NCBI GenBank assembly: GCA_002269645.1
Contig: NIVC01002930.1
Coordinates: forward strand, 1 to 64,000
DNA length: 64,000 nt
From: Macrostomum lignano
Taxonomy: Eukaryota
Direction: 5' to 3'
Shown: positions 1-11,844 of the stretch, in pieces
How the letters are laid out: each line of letters begins with the position of its first letter
Numbering within the stretch: the stretch's first letter is position 1
Made by a program: the position numbers and the translations under genes
The notes under the pieces: model-generated
What the model was told of the DNA's origin: nothing
The model's input: only the letters and a program-made list of their open reading frames with translations
The model's database searches: none

Positions 1-714
1 CTGCACATCAAGCTGATGCCCAGTGAAGCTGCATTTGCCATCCGAACCCCAGATGAGAACAACACAGCCTACCGAATTGAAATTTCCCATTGTATTCTGA
101 ACCTGCGCCGAGTCAAAGTGGCGCCTCACATCAGCCTAGCGCATGAGCAGGGACTTACCAATCAGAACGCACTTTACCCCATCGAGCGAACCGAAATGCA
201 AAACTTCATTCTACCCCAGGGAATTCAGTCAAAAAACATTGAAGGATTCACCCATGGCAAACTGCCGAAGTTCGTTATGCTGGTCTTCGTGAACCACCGA
301 GCCTTCAATGGCCATCACCATTCCAGCCCCTTCGAGTTCCAGAGCTTCAACCTCAGCCAGCTAGCACTAAAGAAAGGTGGTGAAGCCATGTGCCACGCTG
401 CATTTGCACCTGAGAATAATTCATTCGTGAGAGAGTACTTGCACTACCTGAAAAGCTGTCAGTCTGCCAGCCCTACCAACTCGGTTCCGTGGGTCCCCTA
501 CCAGTTGTTCTCCAACGGCAACACAGCTTTCGCATTCGATCTCACGCCTGAGGGAGCGGCCCTGTGGTACGGACAGAAGGAGGGAAATTTGCGGCTGGAG
601 ATTCGCTTCCGACAGGCCCTGGAGGAGCCTGTATCTCTGATTGTTATGTGCCTGTATGACTCACTGATTGAGGTCACGAAGCACAGGGAGATTCTGCTAG
701 ATTTTCCATCCTAG
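1..714 (+). CDS. Polinton double-jelly-roll major capsid protein, C-terminal part (5' truncated by the window edge)
   Basis: Frame is open from base 1 (LHIKL-MPSE...). Motifs LNLRRVKVAP, YPIERTEM, LPKFVMLVFVNHRAFNG, SPFEF, AFAFDLTP, GNLRLEIRF and IEVTKHREILLDF match the Polinton MCP C-terminal pattern. Confidence 0.9.
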   Translation: MHIKLMPSEAAFAIRTPDENNTAYRIEISHCILNLRRVKVAPHISLAHEQGLTNQNALYPIERTEMQNFILPQGIQSKNIEGFTHGKLPKFVMLVFVNHRAFNGHHHSSPFEFQSFNLSQLALKKGGEAMCHAAFAPENNSFVREYLHYLKSCQSASPTNSVPWVPYQLFSNGNTAFAFDLTPEGAALWYGQKEGNLRLEIRFRQALEEPVSLIVMCLYDSLIEVTKHREILLDFPS

Positions 715-737: not shown

Positions 738-1276
738 ATGGATGCTTTTCAACTGCTTAAACTGGCTAAAAGCTTTTTGCCACAAAATAACTATTTAATT
801 ATTGTCTTGAATTCAATAAATAAAACATCTTATGCTTTAAACTTTATTCAGCGAGCAACTCTCAAAAGAAATTTATCTCGATGTAGTTTATTTTCTTTCT
901 GCTTCAGTACGGCTCGTCCTTTGGTCACTGGGTGGTTTGTTATGCCAATAAGGAGAATTCCATAGAACTCTTTAACTCTCTGGGCTGGGACTCAAGCACT
1001 TTAGAGATCATTCACAGAGCACTGAAATCCTTTTGGTATTCTCCATTCTACTTACGTAGCAATGTGAATCGAATTCAGAGCTGCAACTCTGCTAAATGCG
1101 GTTTGTTCTGTCTCTTGTTTGCCTATCAAAAGTTTCGTTTCAAGCGCTCGTTTGAGTGGGTTCTGCGGCACCTCCATGCAAATCAGCAGAGCCACTTGAA
1201 TGAAAGAATTCTGCAAAGGTTTGAGAGTTGCTTAAGAAAAAAAAATTTAATTAGACTTTTAAAATCAAGGATTTAG
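738..1276 (+). CDS. Adenain-like cysteine maturation protease; N-terminus is not in frame with the catalytic part
   Basis: The frame of ORF 932 gives GSSFGHW (His codon 926-928), ELFNSLG and IQSCNSAKCG. The ATG at 738 (MDAFQL) is in another frame, and the catalytic frame has a TAG at 884-886. Confidence 0.8.
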
Positions 1277-1287
1277 CTCAACAGGCG

Positions 1288-1941
1288 ATGGAAACACGTG
1301 AGCGGATAAACTGTTATGATGTGCGCCTGCGACAAGGAAGCTGCATGATTGTCAGCGGGCCTACAAATGCAGGAAAGACAACCTTCGTGAAACATCTGAT
1401 ACAATACAAGGATGTCATGTTTGATGTGAAGCCTGGGAGAGTTCTGTGGTACTACGGAATTTCACAAGCAGCACACTCTGAGCTCAGCAGTCTCGGCGTG
1501 CACTTGCAGCAGGGATTTCCCAGCAGTATCGAGACCGCACTGAGACCCAATGACCTGGTTGTATTTGATGACCTGATTGAAGAAACTTCCAATTCTGCTG
1601 CAATGCGAAATGTTTTCACTGGAATTGCCCATCATTTGCCCTGCTTTCTGGTTATGCTGACCCAAAATGTATTTTTTAAAGGGAAGGAGTTGCGAACAAT
1701 GAGTCTGAATGCGATGTACTTTGTGATCATGAAGAACCCCAGAGACCAGCTGCAGATTGCGGCGCTGGGCAGGCAGTGTTTTGCTGAGAAGCCCGGCTTT
1801 CTGCTGTCAGTGTTCAAGCACGTGACATCGCACGGCAGGGGAGCCTACCTGCTCCTGGATTTTCACCCTTCCACCCCTGATGAGCTGCGGGTCCGGGCTC
1901 GAATCCTGCCCAATCAGCGACCCCACCTGGTTTACACTTAA
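1288..1941 (+). CDS. Viral DNA-packaging ATPase (A32/FtsK-HerA superfamily)
   Basis: Walker A GPTNAGKT, Walker B LVVFDDL, then AHH, TQN, RTMSLNAMY and KNPRD motifs typical of Polinton ATPases. Intact 217 aa. Confidence 0.95.
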   Translation: METRERINCYDVRLRQGSCMIVSGPTNAGKTTFVKHLIQYKDVMFDVKPGRVLWYYGISQAAHSELSSLGVHLQQGFPSSIETALRPNDLVVFDDLIEETSNSAAMRNVFTGIAHHLPCFLVMLTQNVFFKGKELRTMSLNAMYFVIMKNPRDQLQIAALGRQCFAEKPGFLLSVFKHVTSHGRGAYLLLDFHPSTPDELRVRARILPNQRPHLVYT

Positions 1942-1988
1942 GAATAACAGCCGAGATTTTGCCATTTGCTCTATATTCTGCAACACTA

Positions 1989-2306
1989 ATGATAATGGAA
2001 ACATTCGACTCACATGAAAGTTTGTTTGATGTTCTCGCCTCACCGAAATATTCCATCAGCTTTAAACGTCTGTTGATCAGAGCGGGTCCAAAAGCAGTAC
2101 ATGAATTTCTCATTGAGGCCTGCTATAACCTATTGCAAAACACTCTGTCGTTCTCACTCACTGAAAAGGCAGCGCTAGTGAAGCAAAAGCAAATAATCCG
2201 CAAAATTTCTACACATAGAAGAGCTGCGGATCTGCTAAATACGGGTTTTATCAAAATTCTCTACATTCTAATAAAGCTAGTGAAGAAAAAGAAACAAAAT
2301 GAATAA
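1989..2306 (+). CDS. Conserved small basic Polinton protein
   Basis: First ATG at 1989. LIEACYNLLQNTLSFSLTEKAALVKQKQIIRKIS resembles the small basic ORF usually next to the Polinton ATPase. Its end overlaps the next ATG by 8 nt. Confidence 0.65.
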   Translation: MIMETFDSHESLFDVLASPKYSISFKRLLIRAGPKAVHEFLIEACYNLLQNTLSFSLTEKAALVKQKQIIRKISTHRRAADLLNTGFIKILYILIKLVKKKKQNE

Positions 2307-2991
2307 GTTCTCAGAAATGGTTCTGATCCCCAAGTCAGAATACGACATGCTCACACAGAATTTGAAGCCAGTTGAGTCTGAACTCGACACTGCTGTGAGA
2401 TATGCGCAGAGGAAATGCAATGATATTTTGCTTGCCGAGGATTGCCCAGACGATGTGAAAGCTGCCATGTACCATGATGCGATGAAGAGTTTGCTGGCCA
2501 AGCGCAAGCGGACTGGAAAGGATGATGCGGTACCTGCGAGTGATGCAAAGATGCTGAAAACTGATATTGCACCAAGCAGCTGGGGGGAAAAGATCACCCA
2601 ATCCGTGCCGCAGAAGTTTAAAGCGAGAGCCCGCAGTCTATGGGCCATCCTATCTGGCAATCCTTCTCTGATTCGGGTGTCCGAAAATGGCGAGGCGCAA
2701 ATTTGTGGGAAGACAATACCCTCCTCAAACATCCTGGATTTGTTTCACAGTGCCGTGAGGGATTCGAAATGTGCCAGCGAGCCGGTGGGCTGGAGTGAGT
2801 TTGTCTCATTGCTCCAAGATAAAAAGCTTAACATCCCAGCTTCGGCCATAGGAAAGTCAGTTAGGCAGCTAATTTCTAAACCTGCTGTTTCTCCAGAGGC
2901 CGCCCCTGCTCATCATACAGTTAAAGGATTCGGGAGTGGGAGAGCTTGGCTACAGCTGAACAGGAAAAAACTATTTAAGAAGGGGAACTGA
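2299..2991 (+). CDS. Conserved uncharacterised Polinton protein
   Basis: MVLIP N-terminus and KARSLW, GEAQICGKTIPSSNILDL, PVGWSEF and NIPASAIG motifs recur in Polinton ORFs. Intact 230 aa. Confidence 0.75.
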   Translation: MNKFSEMVLIPKSEYDMLTQNLKPVESELDTAVRYAQRKCNDILLAEDCPDDVKAAMYHDAMKSLLAKRKRTGKDDAVPASDAKMLKTDIAPSSWGEKITQSVPQKFKARARSLWAILSGNPSLIRVSENGEAQICGKTIPSSNILDLFHSAVRDSKCASEPVGWSEFVSLLQDKKLNIPASAIGKSVRQLISKPAVSPEAAPAHHTVKGFGSGRAWLQLNRKKLFKKGN

Positions 2992-3031: not shown

Positions 3032-3545
3032 ATGAACTATATTGACTTCCAAGGCTTCCCACGCGAGAGATCGAGCAGAGATTTCGTTGTGAAGGAGCTA
3101 GCCATTGCCCAAGTCCGGGCAGGCAGTTACCATATCACTCATCACGTGTACGCCTCTCCGTTCTCATGGGAGCGAATCTCACCTGAGATGCAGGTGCATT
3201 ACAGAAAGCTCTCAAAGAATTTGCATCATTTCAAGTGGACAGATGGATCCCGATCGTACATGCATTTGGCAAATGACATTCTAAACATTGCTTACGGCCC
3301 CACCTGGACAAGCGGGGTGAAAAAGTCCATCTTTCTGACTGAGCTGCTTGGCAGACAGGTGTACAACCTAGAGGATCTGGGATCACCTTTGATTCAAGCA
3401 TCTGATACTGGTTGTGCAGTGAAAAATGTATTGCTCTACTACAACTGGCTGAAGCCAAAGTTCTGTATCAACTTAAGAAGCGAGGTGTGCCCGCACCACT
3501 CAAAGGCTCTCAAAGACAGCACCACTGACAGAAAGGACTCTCTAA
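3032..3545 (+). CDS. DEDD/DnaQ-like exonuclease-fold protein of Polinton type, probably catalytically altered; 3' end uncertain
   Basis: YIDFQGF, FVVKELAI, HHFKWTDG, VYNLEDLG and CAVKNV...W pattern. The frame has no stop of its own before 4109, so the end given is the start of the next gene. Confidence 0.6.
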
Positions 3546-4111
3546 ATGAGTACACCTGCGACAGCCCTGCGAGTGACCAATCTGGTTGGCGGCGTGGATC
3601 TGAGGCTGGCTGGAGGCAGGGGTGCCCAGTTGCCTCTGCGGGAACTGGCTCTCAGCATGGCTCATGTCATCTATCGCCCCGTCTGGCCCGAGTGCTCATC
3701 AAGAGGATGCGGAATCCCAGAGTGACTCTGTTGCTCTATCCGACTGGACAACTGAGTATCTGTGGCGCCCGGAGCTACTCGGCCTCAGTCAAGGCTGCCC
3801 GTCGCTTCGTGGCTATGCTGCATCGCAGAGTTCCGCCTCAACTGCTGCCTCGTCAATCCGTTTGTGTCCGAATTAAGACTATTACTGCTTATGGAAAAAT
3901 AGACTTGCCCAAGGCTCTATCACTAAGAAACCTCTGTGAAGTGCTACCGAATGCGAAATATGAACCTGAAAGTTTTACTGCTTTAGTTTGTCAGCTTCAA
4001 TACTGCAAGTGTACGCTTTTTCACAATGGCTCATTTGTGCTCAGCGGAGCAAAGTCTAAGCATATGCTACAATCAGACCGTTCCCTATTAGCTTGCTTGC
4101 TTTCAAACTGA
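3546..4111 (+). CDS. TATA-box-binding-protein-like (TBP/TFIID core) protein with a 1-nt frameshift at 3677-3680
   Basis: From ATG 3546: MSTPATALRVTNLVGGVDL...LPLRELALSMAHVIYRP. One extra C in the CCCC run continues as RLARVLIKRMRNPRVTLLLYPTGQLSICGARS...YEPESFTALV...TLFHNGSFVLSGAKS, giving two TBP repeats in about 188 aa. AATAAA follows the stop directly. Confidence 0.85.
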
Positions 4112-4671: not shown

Positions 4672-4720
4672 TCAAAGTAGTCGGCGCCGTTTTGATGATT
4701 TCTGCTGCTGTTGCTGCTGC

Positions 4721-4751
<31 letters not shown>

Positions 4752-4762
4752 GCTGCTGTTGC

Positions 4763-4831
<69 letters not shown>

Positions 4832-7800
4832 AGCAGCCGAATGTGACCAAATGGGAGACTATAGTTAGGGCTCAGCCAAGCGCGCTTGTCTTCCCAAATG
4901 CTTAAGGCACACTTCCGCTGCTGCAAAGTGTACAGTCGGTGATGGATGCTGGCAATACGATGAACAACGACAGAATGGCTGCAGAGCTCATTGAACACCC
5001 TTAGGTAGTCACTGTGAGCCAGCTCTTTCTTAACAATGCATCCTTGAACTCCTTTGGCCTTCTTCTTTTCCGCGGCTTGGCTACTCGCCTTGAATGAGTA
5101 AAGCTTCGGCCTTAGGAGCAGCCACTCCTCAAAGCGAGCACCGGCTGCTTCATCCTTAATGCAGCCAAGTCGCGCTTTTAAATCATTCGAGAATAGCGCG
5201 TGCTCTTGAGGATAGTTTGAAGTGTCGAGCAGCTGCTTCGACTTCAACAGCGGTAGAACTTTAGACTGAACGCTCATGTTGCTGATTGAGAGAAAGAAAG
5301 AATCGGTATCACCACCGCATAGCTTGATGACACCTCCATCGTTCTCTATCCAGGGCTTCAGTTTGTCGTAAAACAGCTCGTACATAATCATTTTCGAAAA
5401 GTCTAGGACGCATTGCCCGATAAAAATAGGCCGATCGAGCTTTAATTTTGTCTTTTGCAGTTCCAAAACGCTTAGTGAATCAGTAATTATGATAAAATTG
5501 GTAATTGTCGGCTTGGCAAGCAGTACCTTTACCTTTTCCACGTTGGTGCAGACTCGAATATCACGCCGCTTTCGCACATTCTCCATAGTTTTGCCGAATA
5601 GCGCGTTATTCTTTAACTTGTAGAAATCCTTTTCGAAGTTGGTTTTCGCTGCAGCCCGCTTCTGGCTATTTTTCTCGACGTAGGCAGCAAAGAGAGGCTC
5701 TTGGTGAAACTCAATCATGCGATTGATGCGTCTAACCCGCATTCCATGGTTCAGGTAGAACGCCAAAATAGAGGAATGAACCACATAGGAAGGCTTATCG
5801 TGACAAGTGAGCATCAGCTTCTCTGTCGGATGATAGGTGGAGTTCTCCGTACCGACCTTTTCCCACAGCTGCTGCATGTATTCAGGAAATTCCCTGAAAT
5901 TCGGGGCAGCCTTTTCCGGTGCAAATGGTAGGTCTTCGGTGGTTTCGTGAATCTCTGGGGGATACTCAAGGTCAACATCAAAGAGGTAGGCGAGTGGATC
6001 GGTTAGCTTGAGTCCTCGAATGCGATCTTCAGTCCACAAAAGCAGCTCATCATCGTCCAGCCAACGGAATCCTCCGACTGGTAAGTTCATAGTGAGCGCC
6101 TGTCCATACAGGTTGTTTGCATCCACAGCAAGAAGCTCGGTGAGGCCAGCATGAATAGTAGGAGTGCCACCATCAACATCCTCATTGCTGTCAACACCAG
6201 TGCTGGCGCCCGCTGCTGAGGTAGCCTGCACTTTGTGGATGTTAACAAACGACATGCCGCCGCGAATGCCGCGCTCAAACAGCGAATACATCTGCGCATC
6301 TGTTAGCAGTTCAATCCCTGACTTGATGGATTTCAATGCCGAAGCGAATGATAGGCCTGGTGTCGAAATAAAATGGACTGGATCAAGGCCATCCTCTTGC
6401 ATGCTGATCTTGCGAAAATTTTCAAAAATATCAGCCAACTGCCTGATGTCGAGCTCGAGGTAGCACAGCATGTACTCTTTTAGATTTGAAACCTGAAATT
6501 CTCGCCAGGCGCGTTGAGCATGCTCATAGTCAGAGTTGGTGCAGTGGCTCTTAGTCAGAGCATTGTAGAAGCTCTCTTGGCTGGGAAGCACGGCATCCTT
6601 CAGCACGTCTGAATTTTTAAGATAGTCATACGGGAAAACTCCCTTGCTGAAAAGCACTTCGGATGATAGCAGTGGGAATCTGCTGCTGCGTAGGCGACTA
6701 GTGATACGACATTCAGCCTCTGGTAAATTTTTGATGAGCTGTGAGAGGCTGGCATTAAGAAATTGATTCGAATCAATGAACTGAATAGTAAAATTTAAAG
6801 GCTTGATCTTGCCCTCACTCTCATACTCGCCGATTTTAAATTCGATTTTCATCGACAGAAACTGCTCTGGATTCAGAGGGATGACGGAGATTTTCCAACC
6901 CTCCATCAGACCCAAAGCGGATGACATCATGAGATGGAGATCGTACCCCTTGAAATTGTGGAACACGACGGGAAGGAAAGACCTCTTTAGTCTGGCCTTC
7001 ATATTACAATCAGCACACGCAGCTCCCCGAAATTCTCCGCTGAGGTGGTCGTGATCCCAATGTTTATTGGACCCTTCCGTGAATTCGCTTCTACAATAGC
7101 AGCAAGCTGTGGCTTCTCTGAACTGTCGCCCTGCCATCTCTGTTCTTATCGCTGCTTGTCGACTGAACTCCGTGTTCCAGCCGTAAACTTCACGAGCGAG
7201 CTTCTCCAGCGATTGCAGGAAATCGGAAATGCACTTATTAGGATCGTCGCTGACAAAAGTGCTCACTTTATCATCCGCTCCTCTGGGCGCTAGACCAGTC
7301 ATCCCTTCTCTGTGCAGCACGATGTAGCCAGCAGCAACAGCAATGTGCTCAGTTAACTTCTTCGTTGCTATACCAGCAATCGAATCTTCTTGGCATGGAG
7401 CATTCAATGCTTCGAAGTCGGCGTAAACAACAAATGGCGGACTAATTGTTTTTTCCCATGATGAGAATCGGAGAATATTATTCCTTTCATCTGGCAACTC
7501 TTCCTTGACGTTGATCACTCCAGGTTGACAAGGAGCTCGGCTGTGTTCTTCAAAGGCTGCATCACTATGAAAGGGCAGCAAGCAGCGCTCACACCACTTC
7601 CGCCGATGCAGAGCTGCCTTGCTATTAAGAAGCCTGTTGATGCTTGAAACAGCACACCAATGACCCGAGGCCTCGTCTTCTGATGGTGGAATAAATAAGA
7701 GTAGAACAACTTCTCGATCTTTAATTGTAGCTGCAGTAGGCAAGCGGAGGACTTGAGCGCTCTCTTTCTCCCAGATGAAAACCGTGAAGCAAAGTCTCGG

Positions 7801-8987
7801 GTTCAGTCTCTCAACAATGGAAAGGTCGGTGACATTGATTGGCAAGTCAATTCCACTCATGTTAAGTTCATCCAGCCAGTCAGTGTAGGAAGACTCGCGT
7901 TGCGCTGATTTCTTTATTTTGTTGTCTTCCTTGTGCAGAAAAGCAAGGCATGCGTAAAGAAAGCAATTTACACCATTGCTTGGAGGACAAATAACCGCCT
8001 TCTTCCGAAGAAGTGGAGTCGGTAGAATAAATTCCGCAGCATGCCCCGTGTAGTAGGAAACTCGTTCGACGAGAGCTGAGTAAAGTTCAAAAAAATTGAT
8101 TTTTTCAATTATCCAGCCACTACCGTTGGTGTTGTAGACATCGACTTTGCGCTCCAGCTCTGTAAACTGCTGTCTCCACCAATCATCAAACTCCTGTATA
8201 TCTACCACCAATCCGAGTTGTGTGCTCATCCATTTATCCTCCCCCTTGACAGCTTCTGACGCCTGCACTCTGACCATGCGCAAATTCAGTTTGATCTGAG
8301 CTTTAACAGAGCAATTATCCGAAGAGTCGAAGCGAATTTCAAGACACTGCTGCACTGCGATTTTGCAGAAATCGAGAAACTCGAATGTTTCAGTGGCAGC
8401 TCCAGGTGTAAATCGATGAACTTGAAGAACATCTTCGTGAGCGCTGGTTTTTAACGCCAGGGTGAATGAAGGTCCTACAATTGAAGAAGGGAAGATAGTA
8501 TTAAAAATATTTATGGAAAGTGGAAATGATGAGAAATGTCTCTGGGAGTTATGGAAGTCGAATATTTTATTGCCCTTTTTTACACTTACGAGTATACTAT
8601 TTATCCTACTACCTTATATCTAGATTTAATATTTTTTTATTAATCAATACGAGCTACGTATAAGTGTAAAAAAAGAATTTGAAGAGTTATTATTGAAGAA
8701 ATAGATGGAGTTCTGCTTTCGCATTTTTGTCAATTCATCTAATGAGGAATAAAAATGTCTCATTATTGTGAGTTCTCCGGCTTAATCCTGTTGGGAACCA
8801 TTTGGGAATTGTTGTGTAGGCGAGAAAAATATAAATAATTCCGTTGCTAAGAGACAGGAATGCAACAAACAGAAATGCATGAGTTCATAAAACCAGCAAT
8901 GGAATGAAAAAACTTACCACTCGGTCCAAATTCGTGGCTGACAGCTGGGTCCACCGGCTCGTCCTCTTGACTCGATGAGGTGGCCAT
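4672..8987 (-). CDS. Protein-primed family B DNA polymerase (pPolB); predicted exons 8987-8918 and 8474-4672
   Basis: ExoI YADFE, ExoII FHNFKGYD, KGVFPYDY, ExoIII YLELDI, motif A DANNLYG, motif B KLKNNALFGK, motif C DTDS, RPKLY and KAKGV. GSGW motif, OTU-like Cys/His pair and an EndoVII-like insert. GTAAGT donor at 8917 and pyrimidine-rich TAG acceptor at 8476-8475, both phase 1. Confidence 0.95.
4702..4830 (-). repeat. CAG/CAA trinucleotide tract encoding 42 Gln and 1 Arg at the pPolB C-terminus
   Basis: Read directly: (CTG/TTG)n on the + strand, in frame between GHIRLL and KSSKRRRLL*. Confidence 0.95.
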
Positions 8988-9686: not shown

Positions 9687-10907
9687 TTAAGCGAATGCGA
9701 GTTCCTCCCCAAGGTCAATAAAATACTCGCCCTCGACTCTGCTCGGTAGTACCAGCTGAATGCAGACTGACGGTGGCATCGGTGGCATGGCTTCTACGAC
9801 TGGGATGTCACCGGTTTGGATTTCTGGTGCAGCCGGTGGAGTAGGAGGTTCGAATTCTCGCAGGAGATCGGATAGGCTTGCTTCTGCCATCATTCTGGCT
9901 TGCTCCATATTTTTTCCTGCGACTGGAACAGGCCTGTAGGGTGGCATCTGTTGCTGCTCAGCTTCTTCATTTGCCAGCTCAACAGGCTCCAAATCGACAT
10001 CCTCGAAGAAGGCAGTATCCAACTCCGAAGGAGCTGCAAAACCAGTGGAATCGTCAGCTGGGAGGCCGGCATCAGCAGTTGGAAGGCCGGCACTGTCAGC
10101 TGGGAGGCCGGCATCAGTAGTTGGAAGGCCGGCACCGTCAGCTGGGAGGCCGGCATCAGTAGTTGGAAGGCCGGCACCGTCAGCTGGGAGGCCGGCATCA
10201 GTAGTTGGAAGGCCGGCACCGTCAGCTGGGAGGCCGGCATCAGTAGTTGGAAGGCCGGCACCGTCAGCTGGGAGGCCGGCATCAGTAGTTGGAAGGCCGG
10301 CACCGTCAGCTGGGAGGCCGGCATCAGTAGTTGGAAGGCCGGCACCGTCAGCTGGGAGGCCGGCATCAGTAGTTGGAAGGCCGGCACCGTCAGCTGGGAG
10401 GCCGGCATCAGCAGCTGGAAGGCCGGCACCGTCAGCTGGGAGGCCGGCATCAGCAGCTGGCGCAGCGGTTGAACCAAAAAAATCTGATTGCTGCTCCACA
10501 GCGGCAAGTGCAGCGGCAAGCAGATCAAAGTTTGCATCGGTAGCGTGCTGAAAATCTTCATCAGGCTGCTGAAAGACGCCCTGAATTGTCTGGCTGAGTG
10601 CGCTGACCGGTGCTCGACTGCGCTCGATAATGTTGAGCTGCTCTTGACGCTGGGCAGCCTCCAAGGCAGCAAAGCGGGCTCGTTTTAAATCTCCAGGTGA
10701 GCTCCAGTTAATAATAATGTGGTTTTTGTGAGCTCGAACTTGCTGGCGCACATTAAAGAGCTCACGCGTCTGGCACTCGTGGCAAAGCAGCCAGCGACTG
10801 ACATTGCAGCTGCTTTTCATTTTGTGACGTTTTAAGCCACCGAGCTCACATGAGTTGCATGAAATGCATACCTCGTACACATATGAAGGGCAGCGCGATT
10901 TATTCAT
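9687..10907 (-). CDS. Hypothetical Polinton accessory protein: Cys/His-rich N-terminus, acidic repeat-containing body
   Basis: 406-aa ORF with ATG, about 150 aa of non-repeat sequence before and about 120 aa after the repeat. AATAAA on the minus strand at 9487-9482. Confidence 0.55.
   Translation of the reverse strand: MNKSRCPSYVYEVCISCNSCELGGLKRHKMKSSCNVSRWLLCHECQTRELFNVRQQVRAHKNHIIINWSSPGDLKRARFAALEAAQRQEQLNIIERSRAPVSALSQTIQGVFQQPDEDFQHATDANFDLLAAALAAVEQQSDFFGSTAAPAADAGLPADGAGLPAADAGLPADGAGLPTTDAGLPADGAGLPTTDAGLPADGAGLPTTDAGLPADGAGLPTTDAGLPADGAGLPTTDAGLPADGAGLPTTDAGLPADGAGLPTTDAGLPADSAGLPTADAGLPADDSTGFAAPSELDTAFFEDVDLEPVELANEEAEQQQMPPYRPVPVAGKNMEQARMMAEASLSDLLREFEPPTPPAAPEIQTGDIPVVEAMPPMPPSVCIQLVLPSRVEGEYFIDLGEELAFA
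10056..10460 (-). repeat. In-frame 42-bp tandem repeat (two 21-bp subunits), about 9.5 copies, encoding ADGAGLPTTDAGLP
   Basis: Unit gctgggaggccggcatcagtagttggaaggccggcaccgtca read directly. Confidence 0.95.
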
Positions 10908-11529
10908 TCCAAATTTTTTAATGTTTGAATAGAAAAATCAAATTGAAGTTAAATTCAAATTAGAAGTAGAAACTTATGTCCCGTATTCAAGTATACGGTG
11001 TCTTATATACCTCGCTTATTCGAATCTGTGTTAATAAAAACATAGCCGCTATGTTTACAGCTTAGCTATGTTTACAGCTTAGCTATGTTTACAGTCAGTA
11101 ACCCAGCCGTCTCAGAAACCGGTTTTTTAAAATAATTTTATTAGAAAACCCAGATACAGAGCCTCTATTGAAAGCATACATGTACAAAAGTTCCTTTGCA
11201 CTTGCCGCCAACTGGAACTCCCGACCAGACTGGGGAGCAATAAAACTGATAATTATTGAGCGTCCAATTCCATTTAGCAACACACCCACCACCCCAAGAA
11301 AGGGGGAGATGCTTGGCTATTATAATCTTATTAAAGCAGCATCTTGTTATTGAAACTTTTGCCTAATTAATAGGCAAAAGTTTCAATTAATTCCAAAATT
11401 CCAAAATCCTTAAATTCCAAAATCAAGTGATTTTTCAACAGTTGGTAGCTCAAATTTTAGACATGAATTGCAAATTGATTTTATTGTAATCATTGAAATA
11501 AAGACACGCCCCTCCTCCTTTTACGATAC

Positions 11530-11844
11530 CCGATGGAATATTAAATGTCATTCAGAAGCAAAGCATTGCCTGGTTTTATGAACCGAACCGCCTGTGTCCG
11601 TCGTAGCAGAACACGCATTTGCCAATACTCATTCATTGCGGTTAACGGAATTCCCGCGGAGCCCCACCCCATTCGCAAATACTTGCACCAATGTACTCTC
11701 ACTAGGAGGTCTCACGGAATTTCCATGGCCTGCCCTGCGGCAGAGTCGCTCAATGGATTTGCATGGGCCCGTATGTTCACTCACTAGGGCCCATGGCTTT
11801 TCCACGGAAATTCCTGCGGCAGAGTTCTGTTATCCCATACTACT
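11530..11844. repeat. Candidate right terminal inverted repeat of the Polinton
   Basis: GC-richer non-coding stretch with internal repeats (ACGGAAWTTCC-like x3, CCTGCGGCAGAGT x2, CACTAGG x2) ending in ACTACT, the usual Polinton terminal pattern. The left TIR is not visible and the inner boundary is a guess. Confidence 0.45.

Follow-up and report, generated by a model that had tools for sequence, protein, structure and literature searches.

A conserved TBP-like gene in Macrostomum lignano Polintons and a variant TATA-like box upstream of their virion genes

A Polinton of Macrostomum lignano carries a gene for a TATA-binding-protein (TBP)-like protein, and this gene is a real, conserved gene of the element. 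What is new here is a variant TATA-like box that precedes the virion genes in TBP-bearing families, which the original prediction, made from the DNA letters, had not seen. Sequence comparisons suggest to us that the element TBP probably binds this box and recruits host TFIIB and Pol II, which would provide the element with a late transcription switch of its own. Were this true, it would show directly that the element has a regulated late programme independent of any helper virus, and it bears on whether animal Polintons are real, self-sufficient viruses and on the timing of capsid production.

The window, by which we mean the whole 64,000-nucleotide stretch of contig NIVC01002930.1 that was analysed, carries the right-hand 11.8 kb of a ~16-kb Polinton (Table 1). 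That the gene lies in a Polinton, as predicted, is supported by a PF03175 PolB in the window, a PF00665 rve integrase in a sibling copy, terminal inverted repeats (TIRs), and target-site duplications; both of the two whole copies of subfamily A1 examined have a 132-bp TIR and a 6-bp target-site duplication. The genes follow the order PC4-like, rve integrase, putative minor capsid, core, putative major capsid, protease, ATPase, two unknown ORFs, DEDD-like gene, and TBP, with pPolB and one further ORF on the opposite strand. The capsid ORFs have no Pfam match, and their putative assignment follows gene order and size. The protease, scored in a sibling, reaches 23.8 bits against Peptidase_C5 (cut-off 21.3). 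The PC4-like ORF of families A and B (L049:2130-2858; L042:3502-4188) has a TATA-like box in front and falls just below the cut-off for PF02229 (E 8e-5 and 3e-5); it may encode a coactivator or merely a single-strand DNA-binding protein. A long poly-Gln tract occupies the PolB end in A1 (window 4675-4841) and does not occur in those PolB ends of A2 and A3 that were seen.

Table 1. Positions of element genes, boxes, and repeats within the window
Feature	Position	Strand	Comment
Putative major capsid protein gene, 3′ part	1..714	+	427 aa in siblings; assigned by position and size
Adenovirus-type cysteine protease gene	738..1254	+	Frameshifted here; 172 aa in siblings; 3′ end approximate
CTTAAGAA box	1231..1238	+	Upstream of ATPase gene
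Putative packaging ATPase	1288..1941	+	P-loop; Pfam matches weak
CTTAAGAA box	1937..1944	+	Across ATPase stop, upstream of 105-aa ORF
Conserved 105-aa ORF	1989..2306	+	Without Pfam match
Conserved 230-aa ORF	2299..2991	+	Without Pfam match
TTTAAGAA box	2974..2981	+	Upstream of DEDD-like gene; TATAAGAA or CATAAGAA in A4-A9
DEDD/Maelstrom-like domain gene	3032..3545	+	Lead only
CTTAAGAA box	3472..3479	+	74 nt upstream of TBP ATG, inside upstream gene
TBP-like gene	3546..4111	+	Bare two-lobe core; 188 aa in unbroken siblings; frameshifted here
AATAAA	4112..4117	+	Immediately 3′ of TBP stop; likely poly(A) signal
Protein-primed DNA polymerase B	4672..8277	-	PF03175
Right-end ORF	9687..10907	-	Internal tandem repeat; without clear family
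Canonical TATA box TATATAAG	11002..11009	-	Upstream of right-end ORF; candidate early promoter
Right terminal inverted repeat	11713..11844	.	~132 bp; inner edge approximate

The ATG at 3546, two TBP-like halves, the stop codon (4109-4111), and the AATAAA were all claimed from the letters and are all present in the sequence, with the two halves in different frames. The downstream frame by itself matches Pfam TBP (E 1.4e-19) and solved TBPs (E 2e-17). The claim of a bare core of ~188 aa holds without any repair of the sequence: among the 150 of 209 candidates scored in a search of the animal's own genome, 11 are full-length at ≥98% identity, and in 9 of these the 188-aa ORF is unbroken. The single-nucleotide slip proposed to hide the gene corresponds to a frameshift at about 3686-3690, which occurs at the same place in one other contig; it had been placed a few codons too early, so the junction peptide given with it is found in no unbroken copy examined. 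Because the contigs of all three public runs that cover the slip site show the unbroken state (a fourth run has no cover there), the slip is an assembly error or a rare broken copy. Our protein analyses are based on natural unbroken copies.

The predicted TBP fold is well supported (Pfam E 1.3e-22). An AlphaFold2 model of the 188-aa protein has a pLDDT of 95.4, though this model is not independent of cellular TBPs because its input alignment contained them. Foldseek returns TM scores of 0.75-0.84 to solved cellular TBPs and lower scores to viral TBPs, with giant-virus TBPs among the matches. We surveyed the residues through which TBP contacts DNA, in human numbering, in 18 sequences from family A, family B, and environmental data. 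F197 is replaced by Pro in 17 of the 18; in every sequence, A198 is Arg, F214 is Tyr, V220 is Ser/Thr, T222 is Cys, Q256 is Lys, N257 is Thr, and V259 is Thr/Ser. Invariant in 18/18 are N167, F288, F305, E284, and E286, and of the canonical DNA contacts two of the four intercalating Phe and one of the two paired Asn are retained. The altered, asymmetric DNA specificity put forward originally is matched by an altered, asymmetric DNA face, with the N-lobe Phe pair replaced and the C-lobe pair kept across the 18 sequences. Both repeat 2 Phe are retained in the unbroken copies, as first read; for repeat 1 the earlier reading of Ala and Tyr stands at the second site, but the first is Pro, with a Trp just before it.

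On the protein-contacting side, the Glu pair of the acidic C-lobe stirrup is described as the TFIIB contact in the accessible part of PMC7221094. Families D-H have Asp-x-Glu or similar at the stirrup, and they keep Pro289, which family A has lost. All 10 element-type TBPs in the D-H alignment have Tyr at F214 and Ser/Thr at V220. A Pro is also present in the same N-lobe loop of D-H and was not counted because MAFFT placed it outside the F197 column. The pattern in the 18 sequences is that of a reshaped DNA face above a preserved TFIIB socket rather than of decay. A search with the TFIIB profile PF00382, which could miss a very divergent TFIIB, yielded 23 candidates, of which 15 matched; these lie on 7 contigs and none is at element copy number, and no RNA polymerase was found among the element genes seen. 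We note that an intron filled with repeats divides the TFIIB gene of the host and that the host TBP and TLF cores are single-exon, each on three contigs (L031:1210-1866; L032:842-2014).

Comparison of dN/dS among copies, which the original prediction had proposed, shows purifying selection in family A, with values well below 1: 0.14-0.48 for the whole gene over 36 subfamily pairs, 0.07-0.27 for codons 1-111, and 0.07-0.33 for the 3′ part where computable, which is near saturation. Young copies of family B, compared in three pairs, diverge too little to be informative (pS 0.05-0.07, pN 0.03-0.05). TBP synonymous divergence is lower where the DEDD-like frame overlaps the gene; in siblings this frame extends across the first ~110 TBP codons, and in the window copy the slip joins it to the TBP 3′ part. 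A genuine DEDD-TBP fusion protein was rejected, since the fused frames stem from slips at three different places in four copies checked and the TBP is a separate ORF in most copies. In families A and B the DEDD-like frame is open across the first 110-130 TBP codons (173 and 42 of 5000 synonymous shuffles; window 3032-3876, L003:843-1688, L042:4825-5706). The overlapping upstream frame was likewise dismissed as a protein, since its pN is higher than its pS and it shows no sign of amino-acid constraint.

At least eight families of Polintons are present in the genome, namely A, B, D-H, and the TBP-less C, which has at least 150 ATPase matches. Family A comprises at least nine subfamilies with TBPs 66-100% identical, and family B, whose TBP is ~35% and whose ATPase is ~46% identical to A, has the gene in the same position. 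Families D-H, with an ATPase ~33% identical to A, have a more divergent TBP-like frame before PolB, which a profile detected in every family and in 7 of the 10 loci overall; the remaining three loci are cut or rearranged at the TBP site. Against the Pfam cut-off, three of the five frames pass, one falls just short, and one has no match. In this one animal genome, TBP was found in all seven families of this capsid type examined; in family C it was absent from 6/6 loci. The TBP-like frames of D-H are without an ATG at the core start (L115:1745, L133:3232, L127:1216, L120:7789), and for this reason they are probably spliced to an upstream exon. In family E a deoxynucleoside kinase domain (PF01712, E 7e-24) is joined in frame to the TBP-like frame, and in families F and G a kinase-like ORF directly follows it; these arrangements were noted at L120:6371-7789 on the minus strand and L127:1216-2503.

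Relatives at 94% and 75% identity occur in Macrostomum lignano database entries, as does a sequence matching the host TFIIB exon at 99%, and relatives of families A and B also occur in Logan, ENA, and JGI data; for the environmental relatives, metagenome and viral scans confirmed no locus. Families A and B and the environmental relatives form one clade apart from host TBP and TLF (SH-aLRT 93 and 89), in two trees that are both quick searches with long branches, the first built without 7 matches too short for the core and with 19 of the 34 canonical eukaryotic rows omitted, and the second using 35 picked outgroups. A single clade uniting A/B with D-H is not supported by these trees. Separately, we observed a sharp mosaic boundary at the junction of the two TBP lobes (window ~3875-3900, codons ~110-118) in L003, L012, L019, L033, L035-L037, and L048. 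Members of a subfamily group mostly share 90-100% of their DNA on the upstream side, which comprises the capsid module and N-lobe, but 55-78% in the first bin past the boundary. Because identity drops so sharply at the lobe junction, it appears that different versions of the C-lobe and PolB have been exchanged repeatedly at one intragenic site.

The variant box has a G at position 6 and reads CTTAAGAA, or TATAAGCA in distant families. All seven families with a TBP have it, and it mostly precedes the capsid, ATPase, and integrase genes by 35-110 nt. The form (C/T)TTAAGAA stands before the ATG of the integrase, both capsid genes, the ATPase, the 105-aa ORF, the DEDD-like gene, and TBP. The box is on the coding strand, mostly within the preceding gene and in varying reading frames, with a spacing to the ATG of mostly 40-60 nt. 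Before TBP it is kept in all of subfamilies A1 and A4-A9, and it persists across subfamilies though the gene that contains it has a synonymous divergence of 0.45-0.64. The box is often the rare codon pair TTA-AGA, for which the expected share is 0.02.

Counts were made in upstream intervals 30-115 nt before the ATG, ~3% of the sequence. Of the box matches, 6/10 lie in such intervals in A1, 7/9 in A8, 6/11 in A9, and 4/7 in B, as against 1/6 in each of two copies of family C, which is the sole TBP-less control and a distant Polinton class. The P values for A1 and B are optimistic because the motif was first read off these two, and related families are not independent in the counts. A fairer test comes from families D-H, which were not used for motif definition: in a de novo count, TATAAG is the top 6-mer, present in 19/41 intervals and usually as TATAAGCAA. 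With the boxes of A and B, this makes G at box position 6 common to all families. The D-H intervals with a box are thus under half, with none before the MCP gene, and the intervals of the protease, the core gene, and the 230-aa ORF also contain no box. The raw motif count is not above shuffles (9 versus a mean of 7.3 in the whole window; 2 versus 1.25 in one 10-kb locus), so the signal of the box is positional only.

Position 1 of the box differs between families. A Pro at residue 289 of TBP favours T at this position. In D-H, which keep Pro289, 19 of 42 TATAAG matches lie in the upstream intervals as against 0 of 23 C-forms; in family A, which has lost it, 16 of 67 C-forms lie there as against 2 of 11 TATAAG matches, and family B is mixed. 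The pattern fits the Pro rule, in a residue-base match that covers three lineages and a count in which 5 of the 35 A and B start coordinates missed the ATG.

Two further observations were set aside. Contig starts at 1269 and 1272, just past the ATPase box, were not taken as transcription start sites because polymorphisms at 1236-1242 explain the k-mer break. None of the runs holding the gene is on record as RNA, and three runs guessed to be RNA were rejected as expression evidence: they cover 28-30 of 30 bins with non-coding parts included, and so say nothing on transcription.

Canonical TATA-like boxes occur elsewhere in these elements, before the terminal genes of family A and, in D, E, F, and H, before the ORFs that open the PolB-side unit; the family B TBP gene also has a canonical TATAAAAG upstream. 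In the mechanism that we propose, host TBP would start the terminal early genes from canonical TATA boxes, and the element TBP would then bind the variant box before the capsid, packaging, and integrase genes. Through its retained acidic stirrup it would recruit host TFIIB and RNA polymerase II, and the virion genes would thus be driven late. The box would serve as a promoter element ~30 nt before the start site, and it would be read by the element TBP and poorly by host TBP, giving an order of early transcription via host TBP followed by late transcription via the element TBP. Host TBP can bind TATAAG boxes, less efficiently. That no element TFIIB was found and that both Glu are invariant in A and B points to host TFIIB as the partner. 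In family A the TBP gene stands behind its own box, which would give positive feedback; this arrangement fits such feedback and not a simple early-to-late relay. A more ambitious version, which we offer tentatively and would not yet favour, is that animal Polintons run an autonomous two-step programme around a minimal orthogonal TBP with a host TFIIB socket. Its DNA face would co-evolve residue by residue with the box (G6 everywhere, C1 only without Pro289), family A would have a self-reinforcing latency switch, and the lobes would be shuffled between capsid and polymerase modules at the intragenic crossover.

The same observations can be read in other ways. The box might be a weak TATA that host TBP or TLF reads, leaving the element TBP to another job such as binding the termini or an origin, or relieving repression by soaking up Mot1/NC2. 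The TATAAG forms of B and D-H are indeed one base off canonical, the TBP gene of family B has a canonical box, and family A keeps most of the basic H2 patch, the site of TBP that host regulators bind. We nevertheless consider this unlikely: the CTTAAG of family A departs from canonical at three positions, the TBP-less family C has no box enrichment, and position 1 tracks Pro289 of the element TBP, not of host TBP. There is a small chance that the protein is instead a decoy with little DNA binding of its own, which sequesters host TFIIB or Brf1 and so dampens host transcription or defence. An invariant TFIIB stirrup next to changes at both N-lobe Phe, N257, and V259 is what a decoy might look like, but between families only ~35% identical the changed DNA-face residues are fixed and do not drift, A and B retain N167 and the two C-lobe Phe, and the box is left unexplained.

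It is improbable, to a similar degree, that the box is something other than a TBP site and travels with TBP by ancestry, either as an RNA-processing signal (a trans-splice acceptor or a 3′ end signal of the upstream gene) or as a TAAG late start for a helper-virus polymerase; TAAG is the late start of baculoviruses. All box forms contain TAAG, some boxes overlap stop codons, and with genes so tightly packed a site upstream of one gene is also near the end of the preceding one. Against this, the last gene of either strand in A1 has no box after it and has AATAAA there instead, AAG is an unusual splice acceptor, and a distance of mostly 40-60 nt from box to ATG is what a TATA at -30 followed by a short leader would give. 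A functionless passenger, that is, a recent retrocopy of host TBP, can be regarded as refuted. The broken window copy, the likewise single-exon host TBP core, and a pN close to pS in 1 of the 3 young family B pairs would suit it; however, the element TBP is about 25% identical to host TBP, is unbroken in most copies, holds the same position in two distant families, and falls in a clade separate from host TBP and TLF. The purifying selection seen in many copies, with dN/dS well below 1 in family A, also argues against a recent retrocopy. We therefore prefer the reading in which the element TBP would itself recognize the variant box and bring in host TFIIB.

Compared with cellular and archaeal TBP (PF00352), the element protein is alike in its two-repeat saddle fold, C-lobe Phe pair, N167, and acidic TFIIB stirrup. 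It differs in being ~25% identical and without the N-terminal extension, in having Pro and Tyr for the N-lobe Phe pair, and in changes at N257, V259, V220, T222, and P289. TLF/TRF2 (TBPL1) is a paralogue of TBP that has lost intercalating Phe and uses promoters differently, and a TBPL1-named cluster among the Atlas look-alikes is weak evidence for a likeness. Unlike the element protein, which has Phe at F288, host TLF has His there, and the two do not group in either tree.

With Polintons, adintoviruses, and MELD viruses, as described in the accessible portion of Starrett et al. 2021 (PMC8502044), the element shares pPolB, rve integrase, ATPase, protease, and two putative capsid genes, as well as TIRs and 6-bp target-site duplications. 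The same portion of that paper has the label 'TBP' in the legend of its Fig. 5, for a MELD virus or related element, and says nothing of what that gene does, how widely it occurs, or which promoter it has. With this label, and with a late TBP already established in herpesviruses, the novelty is lower than originally claimed; beyond the label, we find seven families with TBP in one genome and a matching box. No account of Polinton TBP function or of a late box was found in the open-access literature searched.

The divergent two-lobe form of the protein resembles giant-virus TBPs (Ravarani et al. 2020, PMC7221094). According to the available text of that paper, almost all large dsDNA viruses with a TBP also have a TFIIB gene of their own, and conservation of the first stirrup Glu is just ~40%. 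The element is the opposite of these TBP-TFIIB pairs, with no element TFIIB found and both Glu invariant in A and B. Beta- and gammaherpesviruses encode a TBP mimic (KSHV ORF24), have TATTWAA before late structural genes, and use host Pol II; ORF24 has extra domains, is without the TFIIB-binding Glu, and acts in a six-member viral complex, as given in the accessible parts of PMC12529657 and PMC6541308. As with ORF24, a variant TATA-like box is enriched before the virion genes of the element, with a putative role as promoter. Unlike ORF24, the element protein is a bare 188-aa core with both Glu. By analogy with these accounts, it would work like ORF24 yet stand outside the ORF24 family. If this is true, the Polinton TBPs would be a natural series of altered-specificity variants that still plug into host TFIIB, and such a series would differ both from herpesvirus ORF24 and from the TBP-TFIIB pairs of giant viruses.
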